Below are positions 21,756 through 40,637 of a DNA stretch of 64,000 nt, piece by piece. The stretch's first letter is position 1. Each line of letters opens with the position of its first letter. Both the position numbers and the translations under genes were made by a program. The stretch lies in contig JAWCLH010000003.1 in assembly GCA_038851035.1 (NCBI GenBank), positions 47,511-111,510 of the forward strand, written 5' to 3'. The DNA comes from Thermoplasmata archaeon (lineage in GTDB: Archaea; Thermoplasmatota; DTKX01; VGTL01). The notes under the pieces are model-generated. The model ran no database searches. It was not told where the DNA came from and saw only the letters and a list, made by a program, of their open reading frames with translations.

Positions 21756-21968
21756 CGCCCAGACCCGGACTATCTAGATGCTTAGGGGTAAATGAAGTTA
21801 TCTGGGAACAGCCCGGAGCGTCTGGAGGCAAGTCGCTGGAGTAGGAAGCAAGGAGGCAACGGTCTCTATCCATCCGGAATAATCGAAAAGGGGGATGAGT
21901 TGGGAGAAGTTTCGGAGTTCGCCGGAGGCGGTCGATGGAGCCTCCGGCAGCGGTGGCAAAATGGAAAA

Positions 21969-24900: not shown

Positions 24901-26348
24901 AGGTCTCGAACAGAAACGTCTCCGTTCTCATCGATTCGAGCCGCAATGTGGAGGTATCATCGAGACTCGGCTGGAACGGCACCGCTGTGGCGAGAATCAA
25001 GGTCTTCGACGGCGAGCTCAGCGCCTTCGCCCAGCTCAACATCACGGTAGAGAGGGCGAACAGGCCCCCGGTTGTTTCGGCCCTGCCAAGCATCAGCCTC
25101 CAGCAGGGCAGTGTGATGGAGAGAGCATTCAACCTGCGCAACTACACCTCCGACCCCGACACACCCATCGAGAATCTTGTCTTCGCTATAGAAAGCAACA
25201 ACGAGCCCTCCTCGGGCGTCTCCATCGACACAGAAGGCTGGGTCCATGTACGGCCAGCATCTGAGTGGAAGGGGACGGCGCTCGTCGTCGTCAACGTAAC
25301 AGACGGCCAGTGGACCGTCAGGGCATCTTTCACCGTCACCGTTCTGGAGAAGCCCGCGACCCCCCCTCCGACGCCAGCCCCAGTCGAGGACAGGACCCTC
25401 GACTACATCCTGATCGCCCTCCTCATCGTCCTCGTGGTCGCTGTGATTGTCGATGTGGGCCTCAGGGTGAGAAAGCCGCCCCCGACTCCCCCCCAAGCAG
25501 GAGCGGTCGAAAGGAAGGAGGAGGTAGGGGCTCCGCCGGAGGCACCGGAGTCGAGGGTGGAGCCGAGGCCACCGGGTGAAGGCGCGGTAACCCCCGCTCC
25601 TGAGGAAGGCGGTGTGCTGCCGCCCGTGCCGCCGACCGGCGAGGGCGCGCCGGAGAGTGTCCCTGGAGGCGGTGAGGTCCCGGCTCCCGGCGAGACCGCC
25701 GGGCCGCGCGCGCCAGAGGCACTGATTGAAGAGCGCGAGGTGCCGCCGGAGGGCCCCGCGCCACCCACCCCCAAGGAGGAAACGGGCTTCGAGGTCGTTT
25801 CGGTCGAGGAGATGCCGGGGGCCGGGGTTGCGGCTCTGCCAGAGGGGGGAGCCGAGGTACCTCAGGTCCCCGAGAGCGTTCCTGACGTGACGCCGCCGGA
25901 GGCCGGAGCAGAGCCGACACAGGAAGCCCCCCACACGGAGGGAGAGGCCGGGGCCGCGGCCGGAGCCGGTTTCGAGGAGCTCCCGGCGCCGGCCGCTCCA
26001 GGAGTTGAGGAGCGGCCCGCCGGCGGCGTGCCGGAAGAGAGGCCCGCCGCGCCCATGGGCACTAAGAGCGCCGCAGAGCTGCTTGCAGCACTGGAGGGAA
26101 GAGCCCCAGCGGAGGCAGCTCCTCAACCCTCCCCTCCACTGCCTCAGGAGCCCCCGGCCCCCGGCCCAGCACCCGCGCCGGGCCCGATAGGCGAGGAAGG
26201 CCCACCCGGAGAGGTCGAACAGCAACCGCCCAAACCCGTCACGAAGGTCAGGTGCGCGGGCTGCAGGGCTGCCATCCCCGTTTTCAGCACCCAGAGGCCG
26301 CTCGTCGTCACCTGCCCCCACTGCGGGAGAATGGGTATGCTGAAGTAG
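21969..26348 (+). CDS. Very large surface protein with FG-GAP/VCBS-type beta-propeller repeats, cadherin-like/He_PIG Ig-like domains, C-terminal TM, Pro/Glu/Ala-rich cytoplasmic tail and a terminal CxxC...CxxC zinc ribbon
   Basis: Signal/TM AVVCAVLLALVLPCALPIAP; repeated DxNxDGxxD calcium-binding-like FG-GAP motifs (DFNGDGYPDAVFAN, DLNGDGIDDIAF, DFNRDGLNDIVFSN, DLNRDGWVDIVIAN, DLNMDGWLDIIFAN, DVNNDGIPDVAFAN); TM LIALLIVLVVAVIV; C-terminal VRCAGCRA...CPHCGRMGMLK. The start was trimmed from the 21792 ORF to the AT-rich MNDNNIYNK. Confidence 0.8.
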   Translation: MNDNNIYNKSNGYTEGSLVTNTRAVVCAVLLALVLPCALPIAPEASGYEITRFMDGALERELVFTAESLFATVQLSIPRATNLSRAELSISSSASSVSALLMENTFASGSIQNLTRASELRLVEKDRWWNTSWSYRAPISVNSGSKPRRNITVVADINISLLFTNLGILGRSLDAKSLRIIEVDANGDPVIFNASIAGPEKYEVPMRWSRAPGYSAPGNEIIRLEWLLAGDTPQNRERRFHLYFDDTTATPKPESDARLAFWDDVLFSNWAPYTNFGLLYRNSNGNFSNVPSGSFPTNASAAVITGDFNGDGYPDAVFANWYNGSSYEITSDIFAGGPGGPDNVPEWSLLTCGTFGCAVGDLNGDGIDDIAFPGLRVGSNYSIGSRVYLGNVAGPSNDSAILFYTEGATDAAIADFNRDGLNDIVFSNAYNGSSGNIYSFIYYNSAGGINPVPDVRLPSQNAYAVEAADLNRDGWVDIVIANRKNTSLSGSAQYNINSFVYYGGPGGFNSTPDVLLPTYGALDAKIADLNMDGWLDIIFANYNDGATYNTMSHAYFGGPSGFSTTPGAYFQTSWAYGVSVGDVNNDGIPDVAFANYYNGVSTDINSTIFLGPCIGLQQPDIFLPTHGANDVHIVDVDRYDMSRDLSPPIVHPGVPEGRYVPSGSYVSAELVEDERILSASATWNATVPAQPSGCYVTVALSGDGGASWIEVSKGERLDFTTPTKSLRYRVALHSDPRAVETPVFKDITIFYEKESYPHNVTLDVGEDGTVDWRWPGKFPESVTVNESTPGVAGKGFVTLLMELVPRVGIGNQTVPLRLASERPGVLRLRGLSIAGNYAPEAFLPIPDFLMLEDTTIENVLNFNNFFRDLDGDPLQFTLTGGRNVNVIIATNGSASFSPARNWFGTERLTVRAADPSGEKAELSFAVEVRSVEDPPFFTAPLPDVSVPEGESAPQLFNLLDYIEDEDTVKTALIFSVVEVSNRNVSVLIDSSRNVEVSSRLGWNGTAVARIKVFDGELSAFAQLNITVERANRPPVVSALPSISLQQGSVMERAFNLRNYTSDPDTPIENLVFAIESNNEPSSGVSIDTEGWVHVRPASEWKGTALVVVNVTDGQWTVRASFTVTVLEKPATPPPTPAPVEDRTLDYILIALLIVLVVAVIVDVGLRVRKPPPTPPQAGAVERKEEVGAPPEAPESRVEPRPPGEGAVTPAPEEGGVLPPVPPTGEGAPESVPGGGEVPAPGETAGPRAPEALIEEREVPPEGPAPPTPKEETGFEVVSVEEMPGAGVAALPEGGAEVPQVPESVPDVTPPEAGAEPTQEAPHTEGEAGAAAGAGFEELPAPAAPGVEERPAGGVPEERPAAPMGTKSAAELLAALEGRAPAEAAPQPSPPLPQEPPAPGPAPAPGPIGEEGPPGEVEQQPPKPVTKVRCAGCRAAIPVFSTQRPLVVTCPHCGRMGMLK

Positions 26349-26420: not shown

Positions 26421-27824
26421 TCAGGCGATATCCTGTCCCGACAGACTCGGGGTCTTCCGCTTTCCGGACGCAGATGGCGGTCTGGAGGCGCCGGGGTCCG
26501 GGCCCGGCAGACCGTGGTCATCTACGTTTACTCCCCGAAACCCTTCCCCACCTCTGCTGAGGGGCTGCCCAACCGGCTGGAGTTCGAGCGGAATCGCCAC
26601 CATTTGAACGAAGGAGAGACCCTTCCAGCGGAGCCGCGAGAGTAAGAGTTCTGCGATGCGGTACTGTCCGCCGGAGGTCATCAGCCGGCACCGGAGACGA
26701 CGCCTCTCGCCCTTCATCACACCTCCGATACAGGCGAGGAGGCTCTTCAGGTCCTCGGGATGGGCCTCGAGAACCACTCTCCCTCTGGCCACATCCTCCC
26801 TCCTGAAGCCTGTCATCTCTTCGAATCGATTGTTGATGAATATGCAGCGGAGCCTCCGGTCCACAATGCACACCCCCGCTGGCATGCTCCAGAGCATCTC
26901 GTCGCAGAACTCGCTCTCGGACCTTCTCGCCTCCTCCACGGCCTTCAGATCAGTTATGTCGACGCGAACGCCGGCTATCCCCGCTCGCTCACCTGTCGAG
27001 TCGGGGACTGGAGAAGCGCAGTCGAGCACCCAGCGGTAGACGCCGTCGGCGCGGAGCCACCGATAAACCAACCGGGCGGCGTCCCCTGAAGCCAGCTCCC
27101 GGAGAGCGCGCAGCACTCTCCTCTGGTCCTCGGGGTGGATGCGTGTCTTCCACAGGGCGGGGCGCTCGATGAACTCCGAGGGGCTGAAGCCCGTGAGCTC
27201 CTTCACCTTCCCTCCGACCCAGCTCGACGCAGCCGAGCCGCTGGTCGAAAGAAAATAGACGAAAACGGGAAGAGCTTCAGGAGATGGAATGACTGGGAGT
27301 GTGCCGCAGGCCTTTCTCTTTTCCTTCTCATCCCCTCCCTCGCCCGCCGCCGGTGGCATGGGGAGCACTGTGAGCTGGATGGACCCGTCCGGACCGCTTA
27401 GCTCCACAATCTGCCCGGAGCCCGTCTGGCCCACTGTTTTCAGAATTCTACGCAACTTCTGCCTTTCCTCTTCTCCGCAGAGCGATTTGAGGCTTTCGAA
27501 GAGACTCATAGCCTCATCATTGAGTCTGAGAATCTCGCCATCCGAGCTCGCCAGAAAAAGAGGTAGCGGGGTTCCTCCAGGGTCCTCGAGCAGCCCAGCT
27601 ATATCCTCCTGTCCAGTAACTGGCCTGGTTCTGAGCAGTCGGGGGTGAGGGGCACCACCAGTCACCCGGCCGCCCGCTGTTCCACCATCTACAAGGGCTG
27701 GACGGGGCGGCGATGGCCGAGGGATGGTGCGTACTCCCAGAGGAATCAGGGGAAGATCCCCGCCGGCCTTAAGGTGGGGGCATGCGGCTACCTCTTTCAG
27801 GAGACCTCCCATCCCGGTCCTCAA
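26421..27824 (-). CDS. Multi-PAS-domain sensor protein without a recognisable catalytic output domain
   Basis: Three PAS-like blocks (e.g. ILRLNDEAMSLFES, YRWLRADGVYRWVLDCASPVPD, MLWSMPAGVCIVDRRLRCIFINNRFEEMTGF...RLRCRLMTSGGQYRIAELLLSRL); the start is probably downstream of the called M. Confidence 0.65.
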   Translation of the reverse strand: MRTGMGGLLKEVAACPHLKAGGDLPLIPLGVRTIPRPSPPRPALVDGGTAGGRVTGGAPHPRLLRTRPVTGQEDIAGLLEDPGGTPLPLFLASSDGEILRLNDEAMSLFESLKSLCGEEERQKLRRILKTVGQTGSGQIVELSGPDGSIQLTVLPMPPAAGEGGDEKEKRKACGTLPVIPSPEALPVFVYFLSTSGSAASSWVGGKVKELTGFSPSEFIERPALWKTRIHPEDQRRVLRALRELASGDAARLVYRWLRADGVYRWVLDCASPVPDSTGERAGIAGVRVDITDLKAVEEARRSESEFCDEMLWSMPAGVCIVDRRLRCIFINNRFEEMTGFRREDVARGRVVLEAHPEDLKSLLACIGGVMKGERRRLRCRLMTSGGQYRIAELLLSRLRWKGLSFVQMVAIPLELQPVGQPLSRGGEGFRGVNVDDHGLPGPDPGASRPPSASGKRKTPSLSGQDIA

Positions 27825-27919: not shown

Positions 27920-29023
27920 TCAACACAGGGGCAGCACGCCGAACTGAAGGATTTCCATCCTCTCCTCGGGGGTCAGGAGGCTCGAGCTCAGGAGAATCGT
28001 GGCCCCGGTGTTTCTGGCGACCCGGACGAGGTCCCTGACGAGGTCGAGGGCGGCGAAGTATCCCGCGTTCGTGACGATGTAGTCCAGATTCTCGATGAGG
28101 ACCACAGACCTCTCCGACTGCTCGATGTAGTCCCGCACGGTGTGGAGGAGAACATCGCACTCCGAGGGAGGCAGCGCCCTCTCGTAGACCGATTGGGCCA
28201 TCCATATCACGGGCACCCTCCTGAGGCCCGTCGCCGCCCTCAGCGAGACGGGGTGGGTGCGCGTGACGACGAGGCCGGGTATCCCGGCGCGCGCCGCGGC
28301 CAAGAGCGCCTCCCTTGCCCCGGCGACCCCGCCCTCTCCGGCCAGGTATACCCCGGGCCCGGGTCCCGTCCAGCCCTCACCGCTGCCGGGTCCCTCGGCT
28401 GCGGGGGCCGGGCTGAATGCCTTGTACCTGAGGACGAGGAGGGTAAGAATCGCCGAGGCCCCCGCGGACGCGTAGGGAAAAATCGCAATGGAGACGCCGA
28501 GGAAAGGCAACAGGGCGTCGCAGACGGGGCCAGCGACGAAGAGCACGGTCAGGGCCGAGGCAATCATCTCTGGCTCCCTCTCGGATAGAACGGCCTCCGA
28601 GCGGCCGGCGTATAAAAAGAACGAGGCGAGGAGATAGAAGAACGCGCCGTGTAGCAGGTAGGCTGGATGGGGTGGGCTCCAGCCGTAACTCACGCCAGCC
28701 GCGAGTAAGAGTAGAGCGGGAATGAATAAGAGCGGCCCCCGAATGATTCCCCGCCCCGAGAGGTGCTTTCCTGATGTGTAGCCGAGGGTGAATAGGGCGA
28801 CGAGAGGGGCCTCCGCAATGGAGAGAGCGAGGGACGCTGTCGGATCGCTCGGCCAGAGATAGGTCAGGTCGTGGATTGAGAATGTGCCGATGAGGACCGC
28901 AAGAAGTGTGGCGACGCGGCCGCGGGCAGACCGAACGAGCAGTAGAAGAAGGCCGACGTGGAGGAATAGGGGAAGGAGGAGCCACTGGTCCAGGAGCCGA
29001 GTGAGCGGGGAGACCTCCCTCAT
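27920..29023 (-). CDS. 7-TM membrane protein with a C-terminal degenerate (P-loop-less) KaiC/RecA-like domain (DUF835-like architecture). Start trimmed to MREVSPLTRLL; the upstream 185 codons of the track ORF overlap the real ASCH gene in another frame
   Basis: About 7 hydrophobic helices, then GIPGLVVTRTHPVSLRAATG...SVVLIENLDYIVTNAGYFAALDLVRDLVRVARNTGATILLSS. This aligns block by block with the soluble DRPH paralogs at 29.9-34.4 kb and with the intact KaiC-like gene at 31931. Confidence 0.65.
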   Translation of the reverse strand: MREVSPLTRLLDQWLLLPLFLHVGLLLLLVRSARGRVATLLAVLIGTFSIHDLTYLWPSDPTASLALSIAEAPLVALFTLGYTSGKHLSGRGIIRGPLLFIPALLLLAAGVSYGWSPPHPAYLLHGAFFYLLASFFLYAGRSEAVLSEREPEMIASALTVLFVAGPVCDALLPFLGVSIAIFPYASAGASAILTLLVLRYKAFSPAPAAEGPGSGEGWTGPGPGVYLAGEGGVAGAREALLAAARAGIPGLVVTRTHPVSLRAATGLRRVPVIWMAQSVYERALPPSECDVLLHTVRDYIEQSERSVVLIENLDYIVTNAGYFAALDLVRDLVRVARNTGATILLSSSLLTPEERMEILQFGVLPLC

Positions 29024-29025
29024 CT

Positions 29026-29571
29026 TCAGCCCCCTCTCAGGGTCCTCAGGGGCCTGAACTCGATCACCCTGACGATCTCGAATGGGTTCCAGCGGTGGTA
29101 GGCCGCCTCCCACTTGCGCCTGAACTCCTCGAGCGAGCCGGACCCATCGGCTATTGCGTCCTCCTCGGTCAGGTCCGCGAGCCTTTTCCGGTAGACATCG
29201 GTGATTAGGAGCTGGGCAAAGGAGCTCCCGGATGCAACCCTGAGCTTTGCGTCGTAGACGCTCCCCGCCCTCATCCTCGTCCTCCTCAGCGGGCGAATTG
29301 TGAGAGTCTTGGAGCCGTATTGGATAAGCCTCACCTCTTCCGGCCGGAAAACGAGGGCGCCCGCGGAGCGCCTCCCGATAGAGGTGTTCCCCCCGGCCCA
29401 GAAGATAACCTTCAGGAAGGCGAAGGTGACGAGGCCGCCGATGAGGACGAGGGGGAGCTGGCCAAGCTTGTAGAACTCCGCGTGACCCCAGAAACCTATG
29501 ACGAGCAGCATCGAGACCAGGAGAAGCACCGCGTTCCGGACAGCGGAGGATTGCAGGCGTTTCTCGGTCAC
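29026..29571 (-). CDS. Membrane-anchored ASCH-domain protein (2 N-terminal TM helices + ASCH)
   Basis: VLLLVSMLLVIGFW and LVLIGGLVTFAFLKVIFWA, then FRPEEVRLIQYGSKTLTIRP...LLITDVYRKRLADLTEEDAIADGSGSLEEFRRKWEAAYHRW...IVRVIEF (ASCH beta-barrel signature). Its stop abuts the start of the 27920-29023 gene. Confidence 0.6.
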   Translation of the reverse strand: MTEKRLQSSAVRNAVLLLVSMLLVIGFWGHAEFYKLGQLPLVLIGGLVTFAFLKVIFWAGGNTSIGRRSAGALVFRPEEVRLIQYGSKTLTIRPLRRTRMRAGSVYDAKLRVASGSSFAQLLITDVYRKRLADLTEEDAIADGSGSLEEFRRKWEAAYHRWNPFEIVRVIEFRPLRTLRGG

Positions 29572-29915: not shown

Positions 29916-29931
29916 GAATTTTTAAATAACA
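29916..29931 (+). promoter_or_regulatory. Candidate TATA/BRE box (ggaatttttaaataac) for the pseudo-KaiC operon
   Basis: The only AT-rich hexamer in a 420-nt GC-rich divergent spacer; 60-75 nt upstream of candidate starts 29994/30003. Confidence 0.3.
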
Positions 29932-29993: not shown

Positions 29994-30725
29994 ATGCGGT
30001 GCATGGGTCGCGGCGGAGGTGCGGGTTGTATGGACGGCGGCGGTCTGAAAGAGCCAGAACCGGCATCATCCGTTGCCCCGGCCATCCCGGGGCTCGTGAG
30101 GCCCAACGGGGGACAGCCGGCCTATCTCTCCCCCCTGGAAGAAATTCTTGCGGGCCACCTCTCCCACTCACGGCCGGGTAGCAGGCTCCTCCTGACCTGT
30201 CCTTACACAAGAATTCTTAAAGTGGATATGGCCGTGCTCCGCGTTCTCCTCGGCCGGAGGAGGGAGAGAGGCATATACGTCTCCATAGACAGGCCCCACA
30301 GCTTCGTCCAGACCGCACTGAGAAAGATGGGTGTTCCTCTCGATGGCCTGATATTTATTGACGCCGTTTCAAAGCTGACGGGCATGAGGGCTGAGGGCTC
30401 CATGGTCAGGTTCCTGTCCAGCGGCTACTCCCTCCCCCTCCTCGACGACCTCTTCAGCAGGGCCTACCTGCCGGAGGGCATCCAGATGCACTTCGTCAGG
30501 CTGGAGGACCTGAGTTTCGTCCTTCTGGATAATATCGTGGTCATGCTGCAGTACACCACGCTCGAGAAGGTCAGGAGGACGGTCACCCTGCTGGGGGAGG
30601 CGGTTAAAAAGTTCACGGACATGAGAGCGCTCATCACACTCGACCCATCCGTCAGTCCGGAGCTCTACTCGATTGTGAAAGGCACCTGCGACCGAGAGAT
30701 TTCCCTGCTGGAGGCCGGGCTTTGA
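29994..30725 (+). CDS. Degenerate KaiC/RecA-like paralog 1 (no Walker A; SIDRPH motif); start uncertain (29994, 30003 or 30033)
   Basis: RVLLGRRRERGIYVSIDRPHSFVQTALRKMGVPLDGLIFIDAVS ... FVLLDNIVVMLQYTTLEKVRRTVTLLGEAVKK...ALITLD. These are the same blocks as the KaiC gene at 31931 (GEQGIFFTTLSEP / RIVIDPVSVI) but with the P-loop replaced. Confidence 0.6.
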   Translation: MRCMGRGGGAGCMDGGGLKEPEPASSVAPAIPGLVRPNGGQPAYLSPLEEILAGHLSHSRPGSRLLLTCPYTRILKVDMAVLRVLLGRRRERGIYVSIDRPHSFVQTALRKMGVPLDGLIFIDAVSKLTGMRAEGSMVRFLSSGYSLPLLDDLFSRAYLPEGIQMHFVRLEDLSFVLLDNIVVMLQYTTLEKVRRTVTLLGEAVKKFTDMRALITLDPSVSPELYSIVKGTCDREISLLEAGL

Positions 30726-31285
30726 GTGAGACTCCTGCCTCAGCCGAACACGGGGCTCTTCTTGAAGGTGAGGGCTTCGTTGTCTGCCCTGTCAGGTTCC
30801 CGATGATATCAAAAGTCATGATTGGAATTCTGGACAAGCTCCTGAGACGGACGCAAGGCATAGGGGCGGTACTCTCCCTCGACAGGCCGCACAGCTACAT
30901 CAGCCGTCTTGTGGAGAAGAACGGAATTCCCCAGGACAGAATTCTCTATATAGACGCAGTGATGGGGATCTCGGGAGAGAGCCCAGAGCCGGACGGGGGA
31001 GCGGAGATGCTGCCCGCGCCCTTCTGCATCAACATTCTATCGGACTTCATCAACGTCTGTGGGCCTAGGTTCAGCGAGAAGAGACCGGGCTTCCTGCTGA
31101 TTGACAACCTCAGCGCTCTCACGTCGTACGTTTCCGAGGAGTGCCTCAAGAGATTCCTGGAAAGCCTCCTCGTCCTGAGTAGGCAGACGCCCGGGCTGAG
31201 GTGCGTTTTTGTTCTGGACAAAGACGCTCATCCAAGAATTTACGAAATGGTTAGGGCGATGGGTGCGAGGGAGGTGAGCCCTTGA
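30722..31285 (+). CDS. Degenerate KaiC/RecA-like paralog 2 (SLDRPH motif)
   Basis: LRRTQGIGAVLSLDRPHSYISRLVEKNGIPQDRILYIDAV...FLLIDNLSALTSYVSEECLKRFLESLLVLSRQTPGLRCVFVLD; overlaps the upstream stop by 4 nt. Confidence 0.6.
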   Translation: MSETPASAEHGALLEGEGFVVCPVRFPMISKVMIGILDKLLRRTQGIGAVLSLDRPHSYISRLVEKNGIPQDRILYIDAVMGISGESPEPDGGAEMLPAPFCINILSDFINVCGPRFSEKRPGFLLIDNLSALTSYVSEECLKRFLESLLVLSRQTPGLRCVFVLDKDAHPRIYEMVRAMGAREVSP

Positions 31286-31926
31286 ATGCTGGCCCCAGGC
31301 CTGCCGCCCCATGGGAAAGCGCCCGAACGGACCAGGCAGTGGCGAGCGGGGAGCGCCCCAGGCCCCGTCTCCCCACGTCGGGCTCAAGCCTTCTCCCGGC
31401 GGACAGGTGGGCCTGCCTTGTCAGAGAACTAAGCACCGGGAGGAAACTGCTCGTAACCACCTCCCCACGCCTTCTGAATCTAGTGAGCCTGTACGTGGTC
31501 TGTTATCTCCAGAAGCATCCCGGAAGCGTTCTGTTCATCTCCGTGGACCGACCCAAAGGATACATGTCAAAAATGGTAGAGAGGTACTGCCCTGCAAGCG
31601 GGAAAGTGGTCTGGAGGGACTATACGATGATAAATCAAGCGAGGGTTTCCCATGTTGCCGGTCTCTTCGCCCCCAAGCTACTTCTAGATGCCCTCGACCA
31701 CCTTTCCCGAGTAGAAGGCGGAGAGACCTCGGTCGTGGTTTCGAACGTCTCCGCGCTGAGCTACTACAACAGCAATGACCGCGTCCGAGAATTTCTTGCA
31801 GCCCTAAGCAGAGAAGTCGACGAGGGACGAATAAAGAAGATTGCGATAATAATGGACGGTCAGGGGCAATATATATATAACGAAGCAAAAATATTTACTG
31901 AAAAATCGGTCGACATCGGGTGGTGA
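31282..31926 (+). CDS. Degenerate KaiC/RecA-like paralog 3 (SVDRPKGYM motif)
   Basis: VVCYLQKHPGSVLFISVDRPKGYMSKMVERY...SVVVSNVSALSYYNSNDRVREFLAALSREVDEGRIKKIAIIMD; 4-nt overlap with the upstream gene. Confidence 0.6.
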   Translation: MNAGPRPAAPWESARTDQAVASGERPRPRLPTSGSSLLPADRWACLVRELSTGRKLLVTTSPRLLNLVSLYVVCYLQKHPGSVLFISVDRPKGYMSKMVERYCPASGKVVWRDYTMINQARVSHVAGLFAPKLLLDALDHLSRVEGGETSVVVSNVSALSYYNSNDRVREFLAALSREVDEGRIKKIAIIMDGQGQYIYNEAKIFTEKSVDIGW

Positions 31927-31930
31927 GGGA

Positions 31931-32620
31931 ATGGGCGAGATCGGTCTGATAAGAATCAAGTCTGGGATCCACGGGCTCGATGAGATGATGGAGGGCGGGT
32001 TCGCCTTCCCTTCTACAGTGCTCGTTGCCGGAAGCGCTGGAACGGGGAAGACTACGTTCGCCCTCCAGTTCCTAAGCCAGGGCGCGAGGGAGGGAGAGCA
32101 GGGAATCTTTTTCACCACTTTGAGCGAGCCCACGCAATGGATGCTGAGGTTCGTCTCTCGATTCAGCTTTTTGGACAAAGACACCTTCGGCAAGCAGATA
32201 AAGTACGTCGACCTCGGACCGTTCCTCAGGGAGCAGAGGGACCCCGCGGCTATGCTCAAGTTCATAGACGACCAGATCGCCGAGCACATGCCCCAGAGAA
32301 TCGTTATCGACCCCGTCTCAGTCATAGGAGGAATGATCAAGGGGGACTACAGGATGTTCCTATACGACCTGACCACCCACCTGAAGAACTGGCAGGCCGT
32401 GTCCATACTGACGGGTGAGGTCCTGCCCAACGAGCCCTACCCGGTCGAGATATCGTACATCGTGGACACGGTCATCATCCTGAGTCTCGGCCTCACCCCC
32501 GAGGGTGCGCGCAGGAAGTACTGCGAGATTCTCAAGATGCGCGGCACCACTCACGCGACGGGCCAGCACCTGATGGACATATCGAGAGACGGAATAACGG
32601 TCACGATGGGGCTGAAGTAG
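31931..32620 (+). CDS. Single-domain KaiC/RecA-like ATPase with intact Walker A and B
   Basis: GIHGLDEMMEGGFAFPSTVLVAGSAGTGKTTFALQFL (Walker A at ~32030-32053), RIVIDPVSVI (Walker B), ILKMRGTTH; 229 aa. Confidence 0.8.
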   Translation: MGEIGLIRIKSGIHGLDEMMEGGFAFPSTVLVAGSAGTGKTTFALQFLSQGAREGEQGIFFTTLSEPTQWMLRFVSRFSFLDKDTFGKQIKYVDLGPFLREQRDPAAMLKFIDDQIAEHMPQRIVIDPVSVIGGMIKGDYRMFLYDLTTHLKNWQAVSILTGEVLPNEPYPVEISYIVDTVIILSLGLTPEGARRKYCEILKMRGTTHATGQHLMDISRDGITVTMGLK

Positions 32621-32643
32621 GGCTCATTCGAGACGGAGCCGCC

Positions 32644-33237
32644 ATGTCCTACAGGTCTGAGCTGATTTTTCAGGAGCTGCGGAGGGCTCTGGAGCGGCCG
32701 GGGGCGGGCGGTGTTCTTGTCACGGTAAGGGCCACGTCGGTCACAAGAATCAATCTGTCGGTCCTCAGGGTTCTTCTTACAGAGAGGGGGGAGCGAGGAA
32801 TATTTCTCTCCCTCGACAGGCCGGACAGGCACATGCTGGAGCTTCTGGAGAGGCACAACCTCGCCGCCCCTGGCGAGGCATCTTCCTCGCAGGAGACGAG
32901 GCCAAAGAAAATAGTCGTGGCCGCGGGCGTCATCAGCCCCGTGGAGTTCTTAGACGAGGTCCTCGCCCGCCTCTCGGACAGGGAGAGGGCCCCTGCGCTC
33001 GAGGAGGACCTGAGGTCCTTCCAATTCATAATGGTTGACAACCTCTCATCTATGGCTCTTTATAGCGGCCCTCGCAATCTAGAGCGATTCTTTAGGGGCA
33101 TGGAGGAGCTCCTCCTGCGCTTCCCAAACCTAAGATGCGTCTTCGTCACGGCAAGAGGGGCGCCTCCGGAGGTCATGGCACTTGCCAGGAGAGTATGTCC
33201 CGTCGAGGTGGACATAAAGGACGAGTGGCTGATTTGA
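32644..33237 (+). CDS. Degenerate KaiC/RecA-like paralog 4 (SLDRPDRHM motif)
   Basis: RVLLTERGERGIFLSLDRPDRHMLELLERHNL...FIMVDNLSSMALYSGPRNLERFFRGMEELLLRFPNLRCVFVTA. Confidence 0.6.
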   Translation: MSYRSELIFQELRRALERPGAGGVLVTVRATSVTRINLSVLRVLLTERGERGIFLSLDRPDRHMLELLERHNLAAPGEASSSQETRPKKIVVAAGVISPVEFLDEVLARLSDRERAPALEEDLRSFQFIMVDNLSSMALYSGPRNLERFFRGMEELLLRFPNLRCVFVTARGAPPEVMALARRVCPVEVDIKDEWLI

Positions 33238-33306
33238 GCGCTGAGGGGAGCACTAAGTGGGAAGCACCCCGGAGCTTCAAGAGCCAGTGGAAGGGGGGAA
33301 ACCCTT

Positions 33307-34362
33307 TTGCAGCCCGCGCTACATCCTGACGAATCACTCCTGGAGGTCGCGGAGCTCGCGGCCCGGGGCAGGAGGTGGGAGGAGGCTCTCTCGCTCCTCG
33401 ACAGGGTTCTTGAGGCTGCACCTGCGCTGGAGCGCGCCCACATCCTTCGATGCGGAATTCTAAGGGCCCTCGACCGCCGGAGCGAGGCCGTCGCCTCGGC
33501 CGAGGCCTTCGCTTCCGCGCTCCCCGGCTCGGCGAGAGCCCACCACGAGCTGGGGGTGTGCCTGAGCGCCGCGGGCAGGTATGAGGAGAGCGTGGAAGCC
33601 TTCAGGAGGGCACTGGAGCTTGACCCGAAACTGCTCGAGGCCTGGAAATGGATGGGAATCGCTCTGGGTAGGATGGGAAGGCTCGAGGAGGCCTTCCGGT
33701 GCTACGAGCGGGCCAGTGGCAGGGCGCCGGAGCTGAGCGTTCCCGTGCCGTCCGGGCCCGCGCCATCCGGGCTCGAGACAAGAATTCACGAGCTGATGAC
33801 CGGAATGATGGAAAAGGGCGGCGGTTGCGTGCGGGTCGAGACAGACCCCGCACTCACCTTTAGGACTAGCGTCCTTCTTCTCTCGATTCTTCTCAGGGAC
33901 TGGGACATGGACGGCGTCCTGGTTTCGCTTGGCAGGCCCGCGGACGTCTACCGGAGAGCGCTTGCCGCTAGGGTTCACACCCGCCACCCCCCACACTTCG
34001 TCGAGGTGGTGGCGGGCGGACCCTCGCCCGAGGCCGAGGGGGCACGGGAGTGGGTCACAAGCCTCTCCGCCTTCGAGCCCGATAGGATAGACGCCGCAGT
34101 CAGGGCGGGGCTCCAGAAGGTCGCGGAGATGTACGGCGGGGAGGAGCACTTCGTCATCATAGACGATATAACAGCGATGGAATTCTACAACGGGCGCGAG
34201 GTCGTGAGGAGGTTCGTCGCGGGCTTCTTGGGGGAGCTGTCGTTGCTCAACATCTTCTGCTTCGTAGTTGTTCCCACGAGAAGAGCGCTGGAGCTGCTTG
34301 GGCTCCTTCCCTTTTTCTGTCGAGAGAGAATTTGCGTGAGGGCGGAGTGGCTTCGCGAGTGA
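33307..34362 (+). CDS. TPR-repeat N-domain fused to degenerate KaiC/RecA-like paralog 5
   Basis: N-terminal TPR units (ALSLLDRVLEAAPALERAHILRCGIL..., AHHELGVCLSAAGRYEESVEAFRRALELDPKLLEAWKWMGIALGRMGRLEEAFRCYERA), then LLLSILLRDWDMDGVLVSLGRPADVYRRAL...FVIIDDITAMEFYNGREVVRRFVAGFLGELSLLNIFCFVVVPT. Confidence 0.6.
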   Translation: MQPALHPDESLLEVAELAARGRRWEEALSLLDRVLEAAPALERAHILRCGILRALDRRSEAVASAEAFASALPGSARAHHELGVCLSAAGRYEESVEAFRRALELDPKLLEAWKWMGIALGRMGRLEEAFRCYERASGRAPELSVPVPSGPAPSGLETRIHELMTGMMEKGGGCVRVETDPALTFRTSVLLLSILLRDWDMDGVLVSLGRPADVYRRALAARVHTRHPPHFVEVVAGGPSPEAEGAREWVTSLSAFEPDRIDAAVRAGLQKVAEMYGGEEHFVIIDDITAMEFYNGREVVRRFVAGFLGELSLLNIFCFVVVPTRRALELLGLLPFFCRERICVRAEWLRE

Positions 34363-34449: not shown

Positions 34450-34698
34450 ATGATGGAGCCCACACCTGTAAATATGCTGGGTCGTCCCGTGAGAGATGCA
34501 GAGGGCCGGAGGATCGGTGTCATAAAGGGCCTCCACCAGCGCTTCTGCCCCGGCGGCTTCGAAGAGGTCTCGATTGTGAACTGCAACGGCGTGATTATTG
34601 CAAGGGTGGAGGAGCTCGTGCCGGCGGGGCAGGAGTTCCTTCTTATAGCAAACAGGGAGCGAAGGGAAGAGGGGCAGAAAAGTTCCGGAGATGGCTAG
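34450..34698 (+). CDS. Small PRC-barrel-like protein (tentative)
   Basis: 82 aa, LGRPVRDAEGRRIGVIKGL...VIIARVEELVP pattern resembling PRC-barrel proteins; weak. Confidence 0.3.
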   Translation: MMEPTPVNMLGRPVRDAEGRRIGVIKGLHQRFCPGGFEEVSIVNCNGVIIARVEELVPAGQEFLLIANRERREEGQKSSGDG

Positions 34699-35040: not shown

Positions 35041-37512
35041 ATGGTCGGAGAGAGAGGCGAGGAGAAATTGGGTGATAGGGAGGAAGATGGGCTGGAGGGG
35101 AGAGCCGGAGGAGAAGAGGATGCGACCACTGATGGGTGTCCGGGGGAACAGGAGAGCGTCCTGAGGCCCGTGCCCCCTCCTGAGAGAATTCAGGAGATTG
35201 AGATGGAGGAAGCGGAGGCCGTGGAGGTGGAAGAGGACATTGCAGAGGTCGAGCAGGCGAAGGGTGAGGAGGCCTTTAGGAAGAGCGAGGGGGCGATGGA
35301 GACAGGTGCCGGCTCCCCCGGAACACCCTTGGGTGGGGCTGAAGGACCGGTTGAGATTCCGGGCGACAGGAGGGGTGAGAGGGGCCGGAGCAATGGGCTT
35401 CTGAACAGGAGGGCCCTGACCAACGGTCGGAGCATAGTCAACGGCAACGGCCTAGTCAACGGCGCCAAAACGGGTTTAATAAACGGTGGAAAAAGGGGCG
35501 CAATCAACGGCCGAGGCATCGTCAATGACAAGGGAATCACTAACGGGAGCGATACAGGAGTGGTCGAGGCCCCGCCCCGCAGGCTCACTAAGAAGGGGCC
35601 CTTAGCCGCACTGGCCATCATCGTTGCCTTGGTTCTCATCACCGTCTCATATTACGCCCTCCTCTCGACCGAGAGAGGAGTAAGGGTCGACGGCGGGTTC
35701 TCGGACTGGACCCCCTTCCTCAAGTACCACGACGAGGCCGGCGACCAGCGGAATGCTGACATCGACATCACACAACTCGCGCTGGCCGTGGAGGACTCAT
35801 CGGTCTCGCTCTATGTACGAGTTGGGGGGAGGGTCCTGGCTGGAAGGGACGGCGGTGTGGACATGTTCTGCTTCTTTTTCGACACGGACAGGAACCCAGC
35901 CACGGGATATCCCGCGCCAAGCGTCGGGGCGGAGTATGTTCTCGTCGTGGACGGATACGATGGACGCGTCTCGGCCTGCGGGCTTTACAGGTTCGGGGGG
36001 GCGGGGCGGTCCATTAGCGACTGGAACTCGAGGACCCCCGTCGGTTCCGCAAGAGCGGCCGCCTCCGGGGCCGAACTCGAGGCCCAAGTCGCTCTCTCGG
36101 ACCTCGGGCTCCGACCTGGCTCCGGGCCGAACGTCCAGACCCTAGCGCGGCACAGCGGGGGCGGGGAGGACATCGGGCCGGTCGTCGGGACGGGGCGGGC
36201 CGCGCTTACGGCGGTCTGGGCCCGCGTCGGTCCCGTCTCCGTCCCTCCTGGCAAGGCGGGTGTGCCTCTGCTCAGGGTGGAGCTCAGGGCTCAAGGGGGC
36301 TCCGTGAGGGTCTCATCGCTACGGGTGTCCGTGAACGAGGGAACAGGGGCGCGCGACATCAGCCGGCTCTCGCTGATGACCGCCTCTGGTGCGGAGGTGC
36401 CCGGGGCATCGGCCCCAATTGCAAATGGGTCGGCGCTGCTCGCCCCTGGGAGCCCCTTGGAGCTCAGGCGCGGCGAGTCGATGAACCTCACAGTGGTGGC
36501 CTGGATAGCCTTTGAGGCGGAGAGGGGTCGGGCGGTCGGGCTCTCGCTCGAAGGGCCGCAGAGCATCATCTCCAGCGCGGACACCGTGATGGTGGAGGGC
36601 CGCGGGGGGAATCTGACGCAAATCGGAGAGCAGGCGCAGCCCGGTCGAATCATCATTGATGGAGCGTTTCAGGACTGGGAGGGCATCCCGGGCCACCCAG
36701 ACCCCATCGGCGACGCGACCAACCCTTCCGTGGACCTCAGGGACTTCAGGGTGACCAACGACTCAGCCTCACTCTTTCTCTACGCCGCTGTTGACGGAGA
36801 GATAATGGCGGGCGCGTGGGTGCCGGAGACGAAGCAGAGGCCACAGCCAGGAGGCGGGGGCGGTGGCGGCGTGCCCGCGCCCCTCCCCGAGCTGACGGGA
36901 GAGGACGCCCTCTTTGTGTTCCTCGACATCGATGGTCTCTCTGAGACAGGCTACGCAGGCGAGGGGGCTCCGCCGGGAGCGGATTATCTGGTCAAAATAA
37001 CTGGTCGGGGTGGGAAAATAACATCCCACCTCGTTATGCCCTTCACGGGTGGGGCGGACCGGAGCCAGTGGAGCTGGGGCAGGGGGACGGAGCTCCCCGC
37101 CGCGGCGGGCGGGACCGGAATCGAGCTAGCCGTGGCATTGGAAACCATCGAGAGCCCAGTGGGAGTGGTCTCCCTGTTCTATTACATGACCGGCTGGGGC
37201 CAGAGCCGGGATGCCGGGACGGAAATCGAGTACAGCCTTAGCGGCGGGGGATGGGGGAGGGGAGCCGGCGCCGGCGACCCGCCGGGGGCCGGGCCGGGCC
37301 TTGGGTCGCCAGAGGGTTCGGGCGATGAGCCCCTTCACGCCCCTGAGTTCGGTGAGCTTCTCCTGCCTATAGCAGGAGTCATCGGCATATTCGCAGGAGC
37401 CAGAGGAGCGAGACGGAGGAACGCGCGCGTCCGAAGGGGAGAAAAAAGGAATGATGGAGCGGTGACCGTGGCGTTCTCCGTTGAGGGGGCGTTGAGGGAA
37501 TGGTCTGGCTGA
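35041..37512 (+). CDS. Surface protein, paralog of 17571-21314: acidic N-region, (G)LVNG/INGRG repeats, TM, extracellular DG-F-DW domains, C-terminal hydrophobic + Arg-rich anchor
   Basis: GLLNRRALTNGRSIVNGNGLVNGAKTGLINGGKRGAINGRGIVNDKGITNG; TM LAALAIIVALVLITVSYYALL; RVDGGFSDWTP and IIIDGAFQDWEG; C-terminal LLLPIAGVIGIFAGARGARRRN. Confidence 0.75.
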   Translation: MVGERGEEKLGDREEDGLEGRAGGEEDATTDGCPGEQESVLRPVPPPERIQEIEMEEAEAVEVEEDIAEVEQAKGEEAFRKSEGAMETGAGSPGTPLGGAEGPVEIPGDRRGERGRSNGLLNRRALTNGRSIVNGNGLVNGAKTGLINGGKRGAINGRGIVNDKGITNGSDTGVVEAPPRRLTKKGPLAALAIIVALVLITVSYYALLSTERGVRVDGGFSDWTPFLKYHDEAGDQRNADIDITQLALAVEDSSVSLYVRVGGRVLAGRDGGVDMFCFFFDTDRNPATGYPAPSVGAEYVLVVDGYDGRVSACGLYRFGGAGRSISDWNSRTPVGSARAAASGAELEAQVALSDLGLRPGSGPNVQTLARHSGGGEDIGPVVGTGRAALTAVWARVGPVSVPPGKAGVPLLRVELRAQGGSVRVSSLRVSVNEGTGARDISRLSLMTASGAEVPGASAPIANGSALLAPGSPLELRRGESMNLTVVAWIAFEAERGRAVGLSLEGPQSIISSADTVMVEGRGGNLTQIGEQAQPGRIIIDGAFQDWEGIPGHPDPIGDATNPSVDLRDFRVTNDSASLFLYAAVDGEIMAGAWVPETKQRPQPGGGGGGGVPAPLPELTGEDALFVFLDIDGLSETGYAGEGAPPGADYLVKITGRGGKITSHLVMPFTGGADRSQWSWGRGTELPAAAGGTGIELAVALETIESPVGVVSLFYYMTGWGQSRDAGTEIEYSLSGGGWGRGAGAGDPPGAGPGLGSPEGSGDEPLHAPEFGELLLPIAGVIGIFAGARGARRRNARVRRGEKRNDGAVTVAFSVEGALREWSG

Positions 37513-37815: not shown

Positions 37816-39423
37816 ATGAGTGAGCGGGAATGGGGCGAGGCGGACATCCGGACCCTGCTCTCCATCCTCCCGGTCGGGGTGTTCGCGGCGGACTCCGAGG
37901 GCCTCTACACGTATGTTAACCTTCGCTGGTCCGAGATAACTGGAATCTCGATGGAGGCGGCGAGGGGCAGGGGCTGGGAAGAGGGGTTGCATCCGGAAGA
38001 TAGGGCTACGACGGTCAGAGACTGGTACGCTGCCGTGAAGAGGGGCGCTATATGGAAGAGCCGGCACAGGCTCCGGAGCCGGATGGGGAAGGAGGTGTGG
38101 GTGTTGGAGCAGGCGGTCCCGCTCCGGGGCAGGGAGGGAAGAGTCCAGGGCTATATCGGCACCCAGCTGGACATAACTCTCCAGATGGAGGAGGAAAGGA
38201 GGAAAAAAAGGGAATTGGAGGTTGTCGAGAGGGTCACCCAGCTCCTCGGTGCGGGTCTCGCTTTAATATCAAAAAAATCACGGGTAATCTGGGCCAACAG
38301 CGTGCTAAAAAGGCGCTATGGAGAAATAGAGGGGACTATATGCCCTCTCGCGCATGGCCGCGGGCGGGCCCTGTGCCCAAAGTGCGCTGTTATGGAGGTC
38401 TTCCTCACCGGAAGGGATGCGGTCGTCAAGGAACAGAAGAGCGTAGAGAGGGATGGTGAGGTACGATGGAACCAGATAATGGCCTCTCCGATCAGAGGCG
38501 AGGGCGGCGGGATCGAGGCCGTTCTGGAGCTCGTCGTTCCAATAACTGAAAGAAAAATATCGGAGCAGACGCTTAGGGAGAGCGAGGAGAGGTTCCGAAG
38601 GCTTGCCGGGGCAGCTTTTGAGGGAATAGTGATTCACGGCCCGGAGGGAATTATCGACTGCAACCTCAGGTTCGCAGAGATGGTCGGGAGGGAGCCGGCC
38701 GAGCTCGTCGGGACCGATCTCTGCGAACTGATATCACAGGAGCAGAGGGCTCTAGCGAGGGAGTGCTTTTCCCAAGGCCTCAGCTGGCCCCACGAGTTCC
38801 TTCTGCTCAGGAAGGGCGGCGAGCCCCTGCCCGTTGAGGTCGTAGGGCGGGAGATTCCATACGAAGGCAGACGTCTCTTCGTTTCTTCGTTTAGGGACAT
38901 CAGCGAGAGAAAGGAGGTCGAAAGGCTCAGGAGGGAGAGGGAGAGGTCCGAGCTCTACGGCCTCGTGGTCAGCGCCCTCCCTCTGATTGTGCCCGGACCC
39001 TACCAGGAGATCCGGATGGATCTTCTCAAGACCTTCGCCGAGCGCTTCGAGGCCTACTTCAGGCCCAGATACGAAAAAGAAATGGAGGCGGAGGGTGAGG
39101 CGTCAGAAAGCGGGGCCGCGAAGAGAAATGGACGCGCAGTTACCATGGACAAATACGTTCACTGGTGTGCGGAGCTCTTCAGGAGCTTCGGCCTCACTGT
39201 CAGCTCGGGTTCAGAGGCCGGCTCTGGCCATCTGGAGTTCCACAGCTGCCCCTGGATAGAATACTCGAAGAACAACCCCGTGTTCTGCATCTTGTGCAGG
39301 ACGATGGTCTCACGGAGCTTCTCATGGGCCTGCCCGGGCGGGGCTGTGGGCGTGAAGAGCACAATCGCCGGCGGCGGGAAGTGCTGCAGGTTCGAGTTCA
39401 GACAGCTCCGCGGAAAAAGGTGA
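37816..39423 (+). CDS. Multi-PAS sensor protein with a Cys-rich C-terminal putative ligand/metal-binding output domain (V4R-like?)
   Basis: PAS blocks (LLSILPVGVFAADSEGLYTYVNLRWSEITG..., ALISKKSRVIWANSV..., IVIHGPEGIIDCNLRFAEMVGREPAELVG...). The C-terminal 150 aa carry HWC, HSCPW, CILC, WACPGG, GKCCRFEF cysteines. Confidence 0.7.
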   Translation: MSEREWGEADIRTLLSILPVGVFAADSEGLYTYVNLRWSEITGISMEAARGRGWEEGLHPEDRATTVRDWYAAVKRGAIWKSRHRLRSRMGKEVWVLEQAVPLRGREGRVQGYIGTQLDITLQMEEERRKKRELEVVERVTQLLGAGLALISKKSRVIWANSVLKRRYGEIEGTICPLAHGRGRALCPKCAVMEVFLTGRDAVVKEQKSVERDGEVRWNQIMASPIRGEGGGIEAVLELVVPITERKISEQTLRESEERFRRLAGAAFEGIVIHGPEGIIDCNLRFAEMVGREPAELVGTDLCELISQEQRALARECFSQGLSWPHEFLLLRKGGEPLPVEVVGREIPYEGRRLFVSSFRDISERKEVERLRRERERSELYGLVVSALPLIVPGPYQEIRMDLLKTFAERFEAYFRPRYEKEMEAEGEASESGAAKRNGRAVTMDKYVHWCAELFRSFGLTVSSGSEAGSGHLEFHSCPWIEYSKNNPVFCILCRTMVSRSFSWACPGGAVGVKSTIAGGGKCCRFEFRQLRGKR

Positions 39424-39527: not shown

Positions 39528-40637
39528 GTGAAGTCGATAATCACGGACGCGCTCTCCCGACGGGGAGCCGAGGGAATGCCGCTGGCGCTGGCCCAGCCGT
39601 CCGCCCCGGCGGAGCCTGGCGCCGACGACCGAGAGCTCGAGGAGATTCTTCAGGGGATGAAGGTCAGGATCAAGGTCTTCGGCTGCGGGGGCGGCGGCTC
39701 GAACACGATAAACCGGCTCGTCGAAGCGGGAGTGCTCGGGGCGGAGCTCTTTGCGCTCAACACCGACGCCAAGCACCTCCTGACGGTCCACGCCCAGAGG
39801 AAATTTTTGCTGGGCAAGAGGTTGACGAGGGGCCTCGGCGCAGGCGCGATACCGCAAGTCGGGGAGGAGGCTGCGAGGGAGGCCGAGGAGGAGATAAAGC
39901 CCGTGATGGCGAACACCGACATCGCATTCATCACCTGCGGCATGGGCGGTGGAACTGGAACGGGTGCTGCGCCCGTCATTGCGAAGATGGCGAAGGACGC
40001 CGGCGCGCTGGTAATCGGGGTCGTGACGATGCCCTTCCACGCCGAGGGCGCGATGAGGATGCAGAATGCGCTCGAGGGACTTGAGAGGCTTGAGAAGGTC
40101 GCTGACACAGTGATCGTGGTTCCCAACGACAAGCTGCTTCAGCTCGTCCCCCGGCTCCCCCTAGACCAGGCCTTCAAGGTCGCAGACGAGGTGCTGATGC
40201 TCGCGATAAAGGGAATAACCGAGGTCGTAACTAAGCCCGGGCTGGTCAACCTGGACTTCAGCGACCTGAAGACCATAATGAAGGGCGGCGGGGTGGCGAT
40301 GATAGGTATGGGCGAGGGCGAGGGCGACGAGAAGGCCAACGACGCCATCCAGGAGGCCCTGAACTCACCGCTCCTCGATGTGGACATATCGGAGGCCACG
40401 GGAGCGCTGATCAGCGTGACCGGGGGCCCGGACATGACCGTGGCAGAGGCGGAGAAGATGGCCGAAATCGTCGGGAGCAGAATCAACCCGATGGCAAGAA
40501 TCATCTGGGGCTGCTCCGTGGACCCCAGCCTCGAGCACGGCATGAAGGTGCTTCTTGTCGTGACCGGCGTGAAGAGCCGGTACCAGCTTTCGGAGATATC
40601 GCACCGGGCGGAGAAGGGGCTCGAGTTCCTCAGGTAG
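39528..40637 (+). CDS. ftsZ: Cell division GTPase FtsZ (paralog A)
   Basis: GCGGGGSNTINRL, tubulin signature GMGGGTGTGAAPVIA, NTDAKHL, VPNDKL. Confidence 0.9.
   Translation: MKSIITDALSRRGAEGMPLALAQPSAPAEPGADDRELEEILQGMKVRIKVFGCGGGGSNTINRLVEAGVLGAELFALNTDAKHLLTVHAQRKFLLGKRLTRGLGAGAIPQVGEEAAREAEEEIKPVMANTDIAFITCGMGGGTGTGAAPVIAKMAKDAGALVIGVVTMPFHAEGAMRMQNALEGLERLEKVADTVIVVPNDKLLQLVPRLPLDQAFKVADEVLMLAIKGITEVVTKPGLVNLDFSDLKTIMKGGGVAMIGMGEGEGDEKANDAIQEALNSPLLDVDISEATGALISVTGGPDMTVAEAEKMAEIVGSRINPMARIIWGCSVDPSLEHGMKVLLVVTGVKSRYQLSEISHRAEKGLEFLR

Follow-up and report, generated by a model that had tools for sequence, protein, structure and literature searches.

A KaiC-family ATPase among five P-loop-less relatives: a probable signalling module in an uncultured Thermoplasmata archaeon

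Why should an archaeal operon pair a single KaiC-family ATPase with five relatives that have lost the nucleotide-binding P-loop? The question is raised by six adjacent genes, here g1 to g6, in a 64,000-nucleotide stretch of DNA (the window; contig JAWCLH010000003.1 of assembly GCA_038851035.1, positions 47,511–111,510) from an uncultured Thermoplasmata archaeon (DTKX01; VGTL01). An original prediction, made from the letters of the window, had described one intact ATPase among five pseudo-ATPases of the RecA fold, plausibly adaptors that assemble with it. The reading favoured here, which we regard as probable, is that of a KaiC-centred signalling module in which one KaiC ATPase would be served by five ancient, paralogous and non-catalytic adaptors. 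These are referred to as iKaiCs, after the ‘inactivated KaiC-like ATPase domain’, a term under which DUF835 and MEDS have been classed as signalling domains (Galperin et al. 2018, PMC5847659).

All six open reading frames (ORFs) exist on the forward strand as predicted, and they match exactly the gene models that NCBI gives for this metagenome-assembled genome (MAG). The iKaiC pseudo-ATPases are g1 (30030–30725, 231 amino acids), g2 (30722–31285, 187 amino acids), g3 (31282–31926, 214 amino acids) and g5 (32644–33237, 197 amino acids), together with g6 (33307–34362, 351 amino acids), a fusion of TPR repeats and an iKaiC domain. The remaining gene, g4 (31931–32620, 229 amino acids), encodes a single-domain KaiC-family ATPase of the TTLSEP subtype described below. 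In the NCBI records 4 of the 6 genes are named ‘hypothetical protein’ (QW379_01580, _01585, _01590 and _01600), with g4 listed as ‘ATPase domain-containing protein’ and g6 as ‘tetratricopeptide repeat protein’, in keeping with the view that this is not a standard annotated system. The first two junctions are 4-nucleotide overlaps (TTGA in each case, the TTG start of g2 overlapping the stop of g1), followed by gaps of 4, 23 and 69 nucleotides; the overlaps had been read correctly, but the gaps had been given as 5, 24 and 70, each one nucleotide too many. Purine-rich Shine-Dalgarno-like motifs precede most starts, most clearly those of g2, g3 and g1 (its start at 30030), and more weakly those of g5 and g6. 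For g1 the ORF itself is real, but the start originally chosen, an in-frame ATG at 29994, lies 36 nucleotides upstream of the more likely one at 30030, which is favoured because it is the NCBI start and carries GGAGGTG 9 nucleotides upstream.

The presumed catalytic member of the set is g4. It matches the Pfam KaiC family (PF06745) with an E value of 3e-39 and 135.2 bits (cutoff 26.6) over profile positions 1–228 of 231, while its best sequence matches in the PDB are solved KaiC structures (E 1.6e-43, compared with 3e-9 for RecA). Its Walker A (GSAGTGKT) and Walker B (RIVIDP) motifs align with those of KaiC, GEQGIFFTTLSEP is present as well, and the arginine-finger motif KMRGTTH aligns with KFRGTSH and KMRGSWH of KaiC, all sharing the K-x-R-G pattern. 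The description of g4 as a genuine single-domain KaiC ATPase is therefore upheld. Ser65-Glu66 of g4 align opposite the catalytic Glu77-Glu78 of KaiC, leaving one of the two glutamates in place, and RecA likewise has one catalytic Glu. Probably, g4 is an active ATPase.

The same features recur wherever such a KaiC stands beside iKaiC genes of this type, here called DRP-type after a motif set out in the next paragraph. All 13 of the 13 KaiC genes adjoining DRP-type iKaiC genes carry G-[SGP]-[AT]-GTGKT followed by an invariant TTLSEPxQW, and KMRGTxH is found in every one of them that is not cut by a contig end. Two other KaiC genes, both in the related locus L035, lack TTLSEP, one having the canonical TFEE and the other ILYDTE. 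When scanned against NCBIfam, g4 stays under every archaeal KaiC equivalog cutoff. Judged by its diagnostic motif, the TTLSEP type looks like a separate, unnamed KaiC subfamily and a dedicated partner of the iKaiCs.

The five other proteins of the operon are mutually homologous, with pairwise BLASTP scores of about 30–69 bits, only the pair g1–g3 falling short of significance. Each scores 183–244 bits (g2 192, g6 186) against the family profile, which includes the five window paralogs themselves. Shared by all five are S-[IVL]-[DG]-R-P, a hydrophobic strand of the form hhhh[DS][ND] (h, hydrophobic residue), a conserved Tyr and a late Asp, so that the DRP motif and the hydrophobic Walker B strand of the original prediction are both recovered. 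The individual versions are SIDRPH and FVLLDN in g1, where a disordered N-terminus lies ahead of the core; SLDRPH and FLLIDN in g2; SVDRPKGY and SVVVSN in g3; SLDRPDRH and FIMVDN in g5; and SLGRPADV and FVIIDD in g6. In the latter, the iKaiC core occupies approximately residues 160–351 and the TPR repeats lie within approximately residues 1–145, with the strongest Pfam matches at 54–142 (TPR_1 E 1.2e-16). The predicted loss of Walker A also stands: G-x4-GK[ST] is absent from the five and from the iKaiC cores of all 181 family proteins compared, its one occurrence among these 181 being in an AAA_16 domain at the N-terminus, apart from the core. In the five, strand 1 and helix 1 are joined instead by CPYTR, RFPMI, SPRLL, RATSV or DPALT. 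The order of secondary structure elements, combined with an alignment to FlaH, places DRP where strand 2 ends, a position held in KaiC by the catalytic Glu residues, identifies hhhhDN with the Walker B strand and puts the late Asp at the close of the next strand. The catalytic Ser-Glu-Pro of the partner KaiC thereby becomes Asp-Arg-Pro in the iKaiCs.

Structure prediction shows the five paralogs to keep the alpha/beta core of a RecA/KaiC-type fold. For g3, the most divergent of them, the AlphaFold2 model has a predicted template-modelling score (pTM) of 0.74, and KaiC accounts for the top 13 Foldseek matches of that model (E 2.4e-5 to 9e-5). A profile built from 125 family sequences, compared with the PDB, matches FlaH at E 3.6e-5 over the region from Walker B to beta-6 and KaiC at 0.034; a narrower profile of 26 sequences gave chance matches only against PDB sequences. 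Kinship between the paralogs and KaiC rests on the predicted structure, on the FlaH profile match and on the Pfam KaiC and DUF7504 matches seen in distant members of the family. The proposal of RecA-fold pseudo-ATPases accordingly survives, with the models and the profile leading to KaiC and FlaH and not to an unrelated fold.

Conservation of the locus was followed by classifying ORFs in 40 related loci (L001–L040, some on short contigs), with one GTDB species genome and 26 metagenome contigs in the g1-type alignment search. About 15 contigs keep the order g1-g2-(g3)-KaiC-g5-g6, which is therefore found in related genomes as the original prediction needed it to be. The usual layout, with four iKaiCs and one KaiC (4+1), is g1-g2-KaiC-g5 followed by the TPR-fused g6, and is seen in L001, L002, L007, L014–L017 and L021, some of these contigs being partial. 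In it, one strand holds PAS/MetOD1 genes, 1–3 DUF835 genes and an ASCH gene, and on the other strand g1, g2, KaiC, g5 and g6 are followed by a small PRC-barrel-like gene and then a gene of approximately 800–840 amino acids. The lineage-variable member is g3, which is missing from most related operons. It stands between g2 and KaiC in the window, and after g2 in L011, whose contig ends within g3 before KaiC is reached; it also occurs in L027/L028 (g1-g3-KaiC-g5-g6) and, as a g3-type gene between two KaiC genes, in L004–L006. Further arrangements are g1-KaiC(-g5) in L018 and L022, g1-g2-KaiC-g6 in L024, KaiC-g5-g6-g1-like in L010, a large membrane protein, a 141-amino acid gene, iKaiC and KaiC in L008/L009, REC-DUF835, iKaiC and KaiC beside histidine-kinase and REC genes in L039, an iKaiC-KaiC pair in L040, and KaiC followed by a DUF7504 protein in L038. 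An iKaiC gene lies beside a TTLSEP-type KaiC in most of the other arrangements sampled. The 5+1 stoichiometry highlighted by the original prediction does not extend to these relatives, since 4+1 is usual and other layouts reach down to single iKaiC-KaiC pairs and to 1+2; a count of precisely 5+1 belongs to one sublineage.

The trio of KaiC, g3-type iKaiC and KaiC (L004 6259–8228; also L005 and L006) is a separate observation. Both of its TTLSEP KaiCs are close to g4 (67% and 69% identical), and it adjoins dTDP-sugar and nucleotide-sugar genes, not signalling genes.

The members of the operon have not evolved at one pace. Orthologues of g4 are 75–84% identical in closely related operons and 64% in L010, whereas positional orthologues of the iKaiCs are about 38–58% identical in closely related operons (g2 38–58%; g5 35–45%), with 58–78% in the nearest contig, L011. 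These alignments show that the iKaiCs diverge much faster than their partner KaiC, a pattern expected of a conserved engine with diversifying adaptors. Since each paralog has positional orthologues, the duplications are old. Matching spacing of T-L-S-E-P in the KaiCs and S-h-D-R-P in the paralogs suggests an origin of the pseudo-ATPases from the TTLSEP KaiC lineage itself.

A mechanism can be proposed on this basis. In a KaiC-centred signalling module, g4 would be co-expressed with g1, g2, g3, g5 and the TPR-fused g6, and the iKaiCs, being presumably incapable of ATP hydrolysis, would bind KaiC as specificity or adaptor subunits by docking on the KaiC oligomer, inserting into it or capping it. 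Each paralog could then link KaiC to a separate input or output, candidates being the TPR module of g6, membrane DUF835 sensors, PAS/MetOD1 proteins, and the PRC-barrel-like and 823-amino acid proteins encoded nearby. Which partners bind might be set by ATP binding, hydrolysis or autophosphorylation of KaiC, by analogy with ArlH, in which autophosphorylation controls oligomerisation and binding to ArlI (PMC10983859). In the iKaiCs, the conserved polar residues Asp41, Arg42, Asp65, Asp121, Asn122 and Asp159 (g1-core numbering), which lie at the C-terminal ends of core strands, would mark the former nucleotide cleft, a likely contact or ligand site.

Several findings weigh against such a module. 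When the paralogs are compared with g4 directly by sequence, similarity does not reach significance (BLASTP, E 0.07 across 26 residues), and hhalign of the family against an alignment of KaiC orthologues gives a probability of less than 1%, because the latter alignment is too shallow (effective sequence number, Neff, 1.6); its register is the one originally drawn, but is no evidence alone. In g4, the first catalytic Glu is replaced by Ser in the alignment to KaiC. The number of iKaiC genes per KaiC ranges from 0.5 to 5, so that no fixed complex is implied, and certain members of the family, such as the Altiarchaeota protein P0170 in L037, lack a neighbouring KaiC. The paralogs also end after the equivalent of beta-6, and the last approximately 45 residues of KaiC, including the KMRGTTH arginine finger, are absent. 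The arginine-finger hairpin forms much of the KaiC ring interface. The paralogs are for this reason described better as truncated, P-loop-less KaiC cores than as full-length look-alikes, and the block-for-block alignment with g4 claimed earlier holds as far as the beta-6 equivalent, but not over the final stretch, which has no counterpart. Lacking the arginine-finger segment, they are doubtful as canonical ring subunits. Adaptors assembling with KaiC, as first proposed, fit the adjacency of the genes in several independent arrangements, but the simple hetero-hexamer version of that idea is weakened.

The alternative that fares best places KaiC and the iKaiCs in one mixed, RecA-type hetero-oligomeric ring, in the manner of Elp4/5/6 or the RAD51-paralog complexes, in which KaiC alone would be catalytic and up to six different subunits would take part at this locus. 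Gene number varies, however (4+1 is usual, while 1+1, 2+1 and 1+2 exist), the paralogs are without the KMRGTxH segment that contributes to KaiC ring interfaces, and g6 bears a bulky TPR arm. As the number of genes is not constant and the arginine-finger segment is absent, the mixed ring is less likely than dedicated adaptors, and we consider it unlikely overall. Somewhat less likely still is a more specific architecture, in which the TTLSEP KaiC and the DRP paralogs form an asymmetric hetero-oligomer with the catalytic subunit surrounded or capped by up to five non-catalytic RecA-fold subunits, each plugging the arginine finger or nucleotide face of KaiC into a different sensor or effector. 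If true, it would constitute an archaeal counterpart of the Elp456 and RAD51-paralog complexes that serves to integrate signals, and would give the proposed KaiC hubs their first defined molecular architecture.

A different role is suggested by the remodelled cleft, which could hold a second messenger or other small molecule in the way proposed for MEDS and seen in the degenerate RecA-like domain of BcsE, with the ligand differing between paralogs and the signal passing to KaiC or to other partners. No ligand is predicted, the conserved Asp-Arg pair could simply be a structural salt bridge that fills an empty site, and Pfam MEDS (PF14417) has no match at E ≤ 1 in the five paralogs or in 26 family members. 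Ligand sensing as the explanation of the locus is improbable, though such sensing could operate within the adaptor model and need not replace it.

A further alternative is recombination or repair, in which a RadA/Rad55-like ATPase would act on DNA with paralogous mediators. A near-identical homologue of g4 is named ‘RAD55 family ATPase’ by NCBI, and DMC1, RAD51, RadA and RAD51 paralogs are among the strong Foldseek matches of the paralog models. The sequence of g4, however, fits KaiC far better than RadA/RecA (by the PDB E values given above, 1.6e-43 against 3e-9), and the genes around these loci encode PAS, MetOD1, DUF835, REC, histidine-kinase and TPR proteins rather than proteins of DNA metabolism, no DNA-binding domains having been found. 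A function in repair is very improbable. Hardly credible at all are decaying KaiC duplicates, for which tandem paralogy and very fast divergence could be cited but to which five intact ORFs, positional orthologues in many contigs and a motif set maintained over 1183 clusters are opposed, or an anti-phage defence island, given that a PADLOC scan has no match apart from a trivial P-loop match for g4. The pseudogene or duplication-artefact reading was rejected since every paralog has positional orthologues, and the defence-system reading was dropped with the failure to match any PADLOC system. A clock was also rejected, g4 being single-domain and no KaiA or KaiB family being present among the neighbouring ORFs scanned.

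The preferred reading, a KaiC-centred module with iKaiC adaptors, draws on the surroundings of the operon as well. Across the loci, the signalling neighbours comprise DUF835, PAS, MetOD1, REC and histidine-kinase genes, which is the kind of context known for iKaiC domains, and PAS/MetOD1 or REC-PAS-MetOD1 genes flank related loci. Immediately upstream in the window, and transcribed divergently from the operon, is a unit of two genes on the reverse strand. Its first gene (29026–29571) encodes a 181-amino acid ASCH-domain protein (PF04266 E 2.5e-9), kept in the same place in 16 related loci, and separated by 2 nucleotides from the gene for a 367-amino acid DUF835 membrane protein (27920–29023). 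The ASCH domain is usually linked to RNA binding. The DUF835 protein has at least four hydrophobic segments and a C-terminal DUF835 domain (PF05763 E 3.1e-15, 56.6 bits; VVTRTHP ... VVLIENLD), and between one and three DUF835 genes occupy the same position in related loci. In the divergent intergenic region, an AT-rich candidate for the archaeal TATA box of the operon, AATTTTTAAATAA, can be read at 29917–29929 on the forward strand. Beyond the DUF835 gene, a PAS-PAS protein (26421–27824, reverse strand; PAS_3 E 3.4e-27), the start codon of which is uncertain, has a relative in L011.

Downstream, on the forward strand, g6 is followed by an 82-amino acid PRC-barrel-like protein (34450–34698; a weak, sub-threshold Pfam PRC match, E 0.006), orthologues of which lie directly downstream of g6 in L001, L002, L007, L014, L016, L017 and L021. 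Next is an 823-amino acid membrane-anchored protein (35041–37512) with no Pfam family and one transmembrane-like segment at residues 182–211. Orthologues scoring 591–645 bits are found downstream in related loci, a paralog lies in the window at 17571–21314, and a 1112-amino acid relative (199 bits) stands at L008 2167–5505, upstream of the iKaiC-KaiC pair. The 823-amino acid protein could serve the module as effector or sensor. A PAS-PAS-MetOD1 protein (37816–39423, forward strand; MetOD1 E 1.7e-33 plus PAS domains) completes this side.

Other features of the window were recorded in passing. Tandem FtsZ/tubulin-family genes lie at 39528–40637 and 40773–41900, downstream of the PAS-MetOD1 gene (Tubulin E approximately 1e-47 each, plus FtsZ_C). 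Upstream of the module are genes for a 1934-amino acid protein of approximately 30 TPR repeats (11639–17443) and for a 1518-amino acid FG-GAP/Big_9/cadherin-like surface protein (21792–26348). Between 8001 and 10500 the GC content falls sharply to 0.35, compared with approximately 0.6 elsewhere. This low-GC region contains an Orc1/Cdc6 gene (8237–9517, forward strand; Cdc6_C E 2.3e-28) and a 330-amino acid ORF (9514–10506, reverse strand) with no Pfam match, and could represent either an integrated element or the region of a replication origin.

How large, then, is the partner family, and does it already carry a name? A word-indexed search returned no more than 35 close relatives, every one of them from a Thermoplasmata MAG or a metagenome, while an exhaustive search by profile yielded 1183 cluster representatives at E ≤ 1e-3, 305 of them at or below 1e-10. 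When 66 diverse representatives were compared with Pfam, DUF7504 was matched by 24, KaiC by 21, DUF7090 by 13 and DUF835 by 10. TPR repeats occur in approximately 11 of these 66, TPR-iKaiC fusions being common, and the longer relatives carry N-terminal fusions to TPR, SNAP-like repeats, or AAA_16 plus DUF835. In long relatives (P0123, P0131, P0147 and P0170, the last from an Altiarchaeota MAG) it is the C-terminal domain which passes the DUF7504 threshold. The proteins of the window stay below it. Against DUF7504 (PF24336, cutoff 27 bits), g1 reaches 13.6–14.9 bits and g6 14.4 (residues 202–329), with no match for g2, g3 or g5, and matches of the window paralogs to Pfam KaiC are likewise sub-threshold only. 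For DUF835 (PF05763, cutoff 33.1 bits), none of the five matches at E ≤ 1 and 3 of 26 close relatives do so below threshold (best E 0.0036), and an NCBIfam scan has no match for any of the five. On sequence grounds, the five paralogs are relatives, not recognised members, of DUF7504, and the ‘DRPH family’ of the original prediction is a divergent branch of a DUF7504/DUF7090/DUF835 continuum. The suggestion that this family was undescribed consequently does not hold in full, as some of its 1183 clusters pass DUF7504, DUF7090, DUF835 or KaiC and iKaiC domains have already been published (PMC5847659). No publication describing the operon was found in literature searched on iKaiC, DUF7504, DUF7090 and KaiC with Thermoplasmata.

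The idea that iKaiC domains partner KaiC hubs is, then, already in print, and DUF7504 is catalogued. New are the multi-paralog operon, the superfamily placement of its ‘hypothetical proteins’, the TTLSEP subtype, the truncation of the partners and the conserved extended neighbourhood. The hub proposal for archaea is still mainly computational, and this locus offers a compact, testable hub unit consisting of a conserved KaiC subtype, 1–5 dedicated pseudo-ATPase partners and adjoining membrane DUF835 sensors. The partner family spans approximately 1200 clusters, mostly missed by current Pfam and NCBIfam models in these genomes, and its want of the arginine-finger segment restricts the possible modes of assembly. 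If binding and tuning of KaiC by the partners were demonstrated, a large number of ‘hypothetical proteins’ from Thermoplasmata and from other archaea would be reannotated, and the hub model would gain a biochemical handle.

Makarova, Galperin and Koonin are said to have proposed, in 2017, KaiC-like ATPases and their inactivated relatives as archaeal signalling hubs, and the iKaiC domains DUF835 and MEDS are among the closest comparisons. Like the five paralogs, they have a KaiC/RecA-derived core without a working P-loop and are found in archaeal signalling contexts (REC, PAS, TPR) alongside KaiC-family ATPases. Unlike them, the five are soluble and, the TPR fusion of g6 aside, stand alone; they have a signature of their own (S-h-D-R-P / hhhhDN / Y), and four or five paralogs surround one KaiC. 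The nearest named sequence families are DUF7504 (PF24336), catalogued without functional annotation, and DUF7090 (PF23365); distant relatives pass DUF7504 over the same C-terminal domain, whereas the window proteins fall below its threshold. As for the ATPase, g4 resembles the archaeal single-domain KaiC-like ATPases PH0284, PH0186, SSO2452, ArlH/FlaH and CirA, but differs in its TTLSEPxQW motif (Ser-Glu for Glu-Glu) and in lying outside archaellum and gas-vesicle clusters.

Further afield, Elp4/5/6 and the RAD51-paralog complexes (BCDX2, CX3, Shu/Psy3-Csm2) have subunits that the predicted structures resemble, yet these complexes belong to eukaryotes, have tRNA or DNA as their target and show no detectable sequence relationship. 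Any heteromeric assembly of the archaeal proteins would be putative, and the varying number of their genes speaks against a fixed ring or stoichiometry. With the cyanobacterial KaiABC system, finally, the locus shares a KaiC match (E 1.6e-43) and the idea of accessory proteins that time or gate KaiC signalling. There a double-domain KaiC works with KaiA and KaiB, while here KaiC has a single domain and the accessory proteins are pseudo-ATPases derived from KaiC itself.

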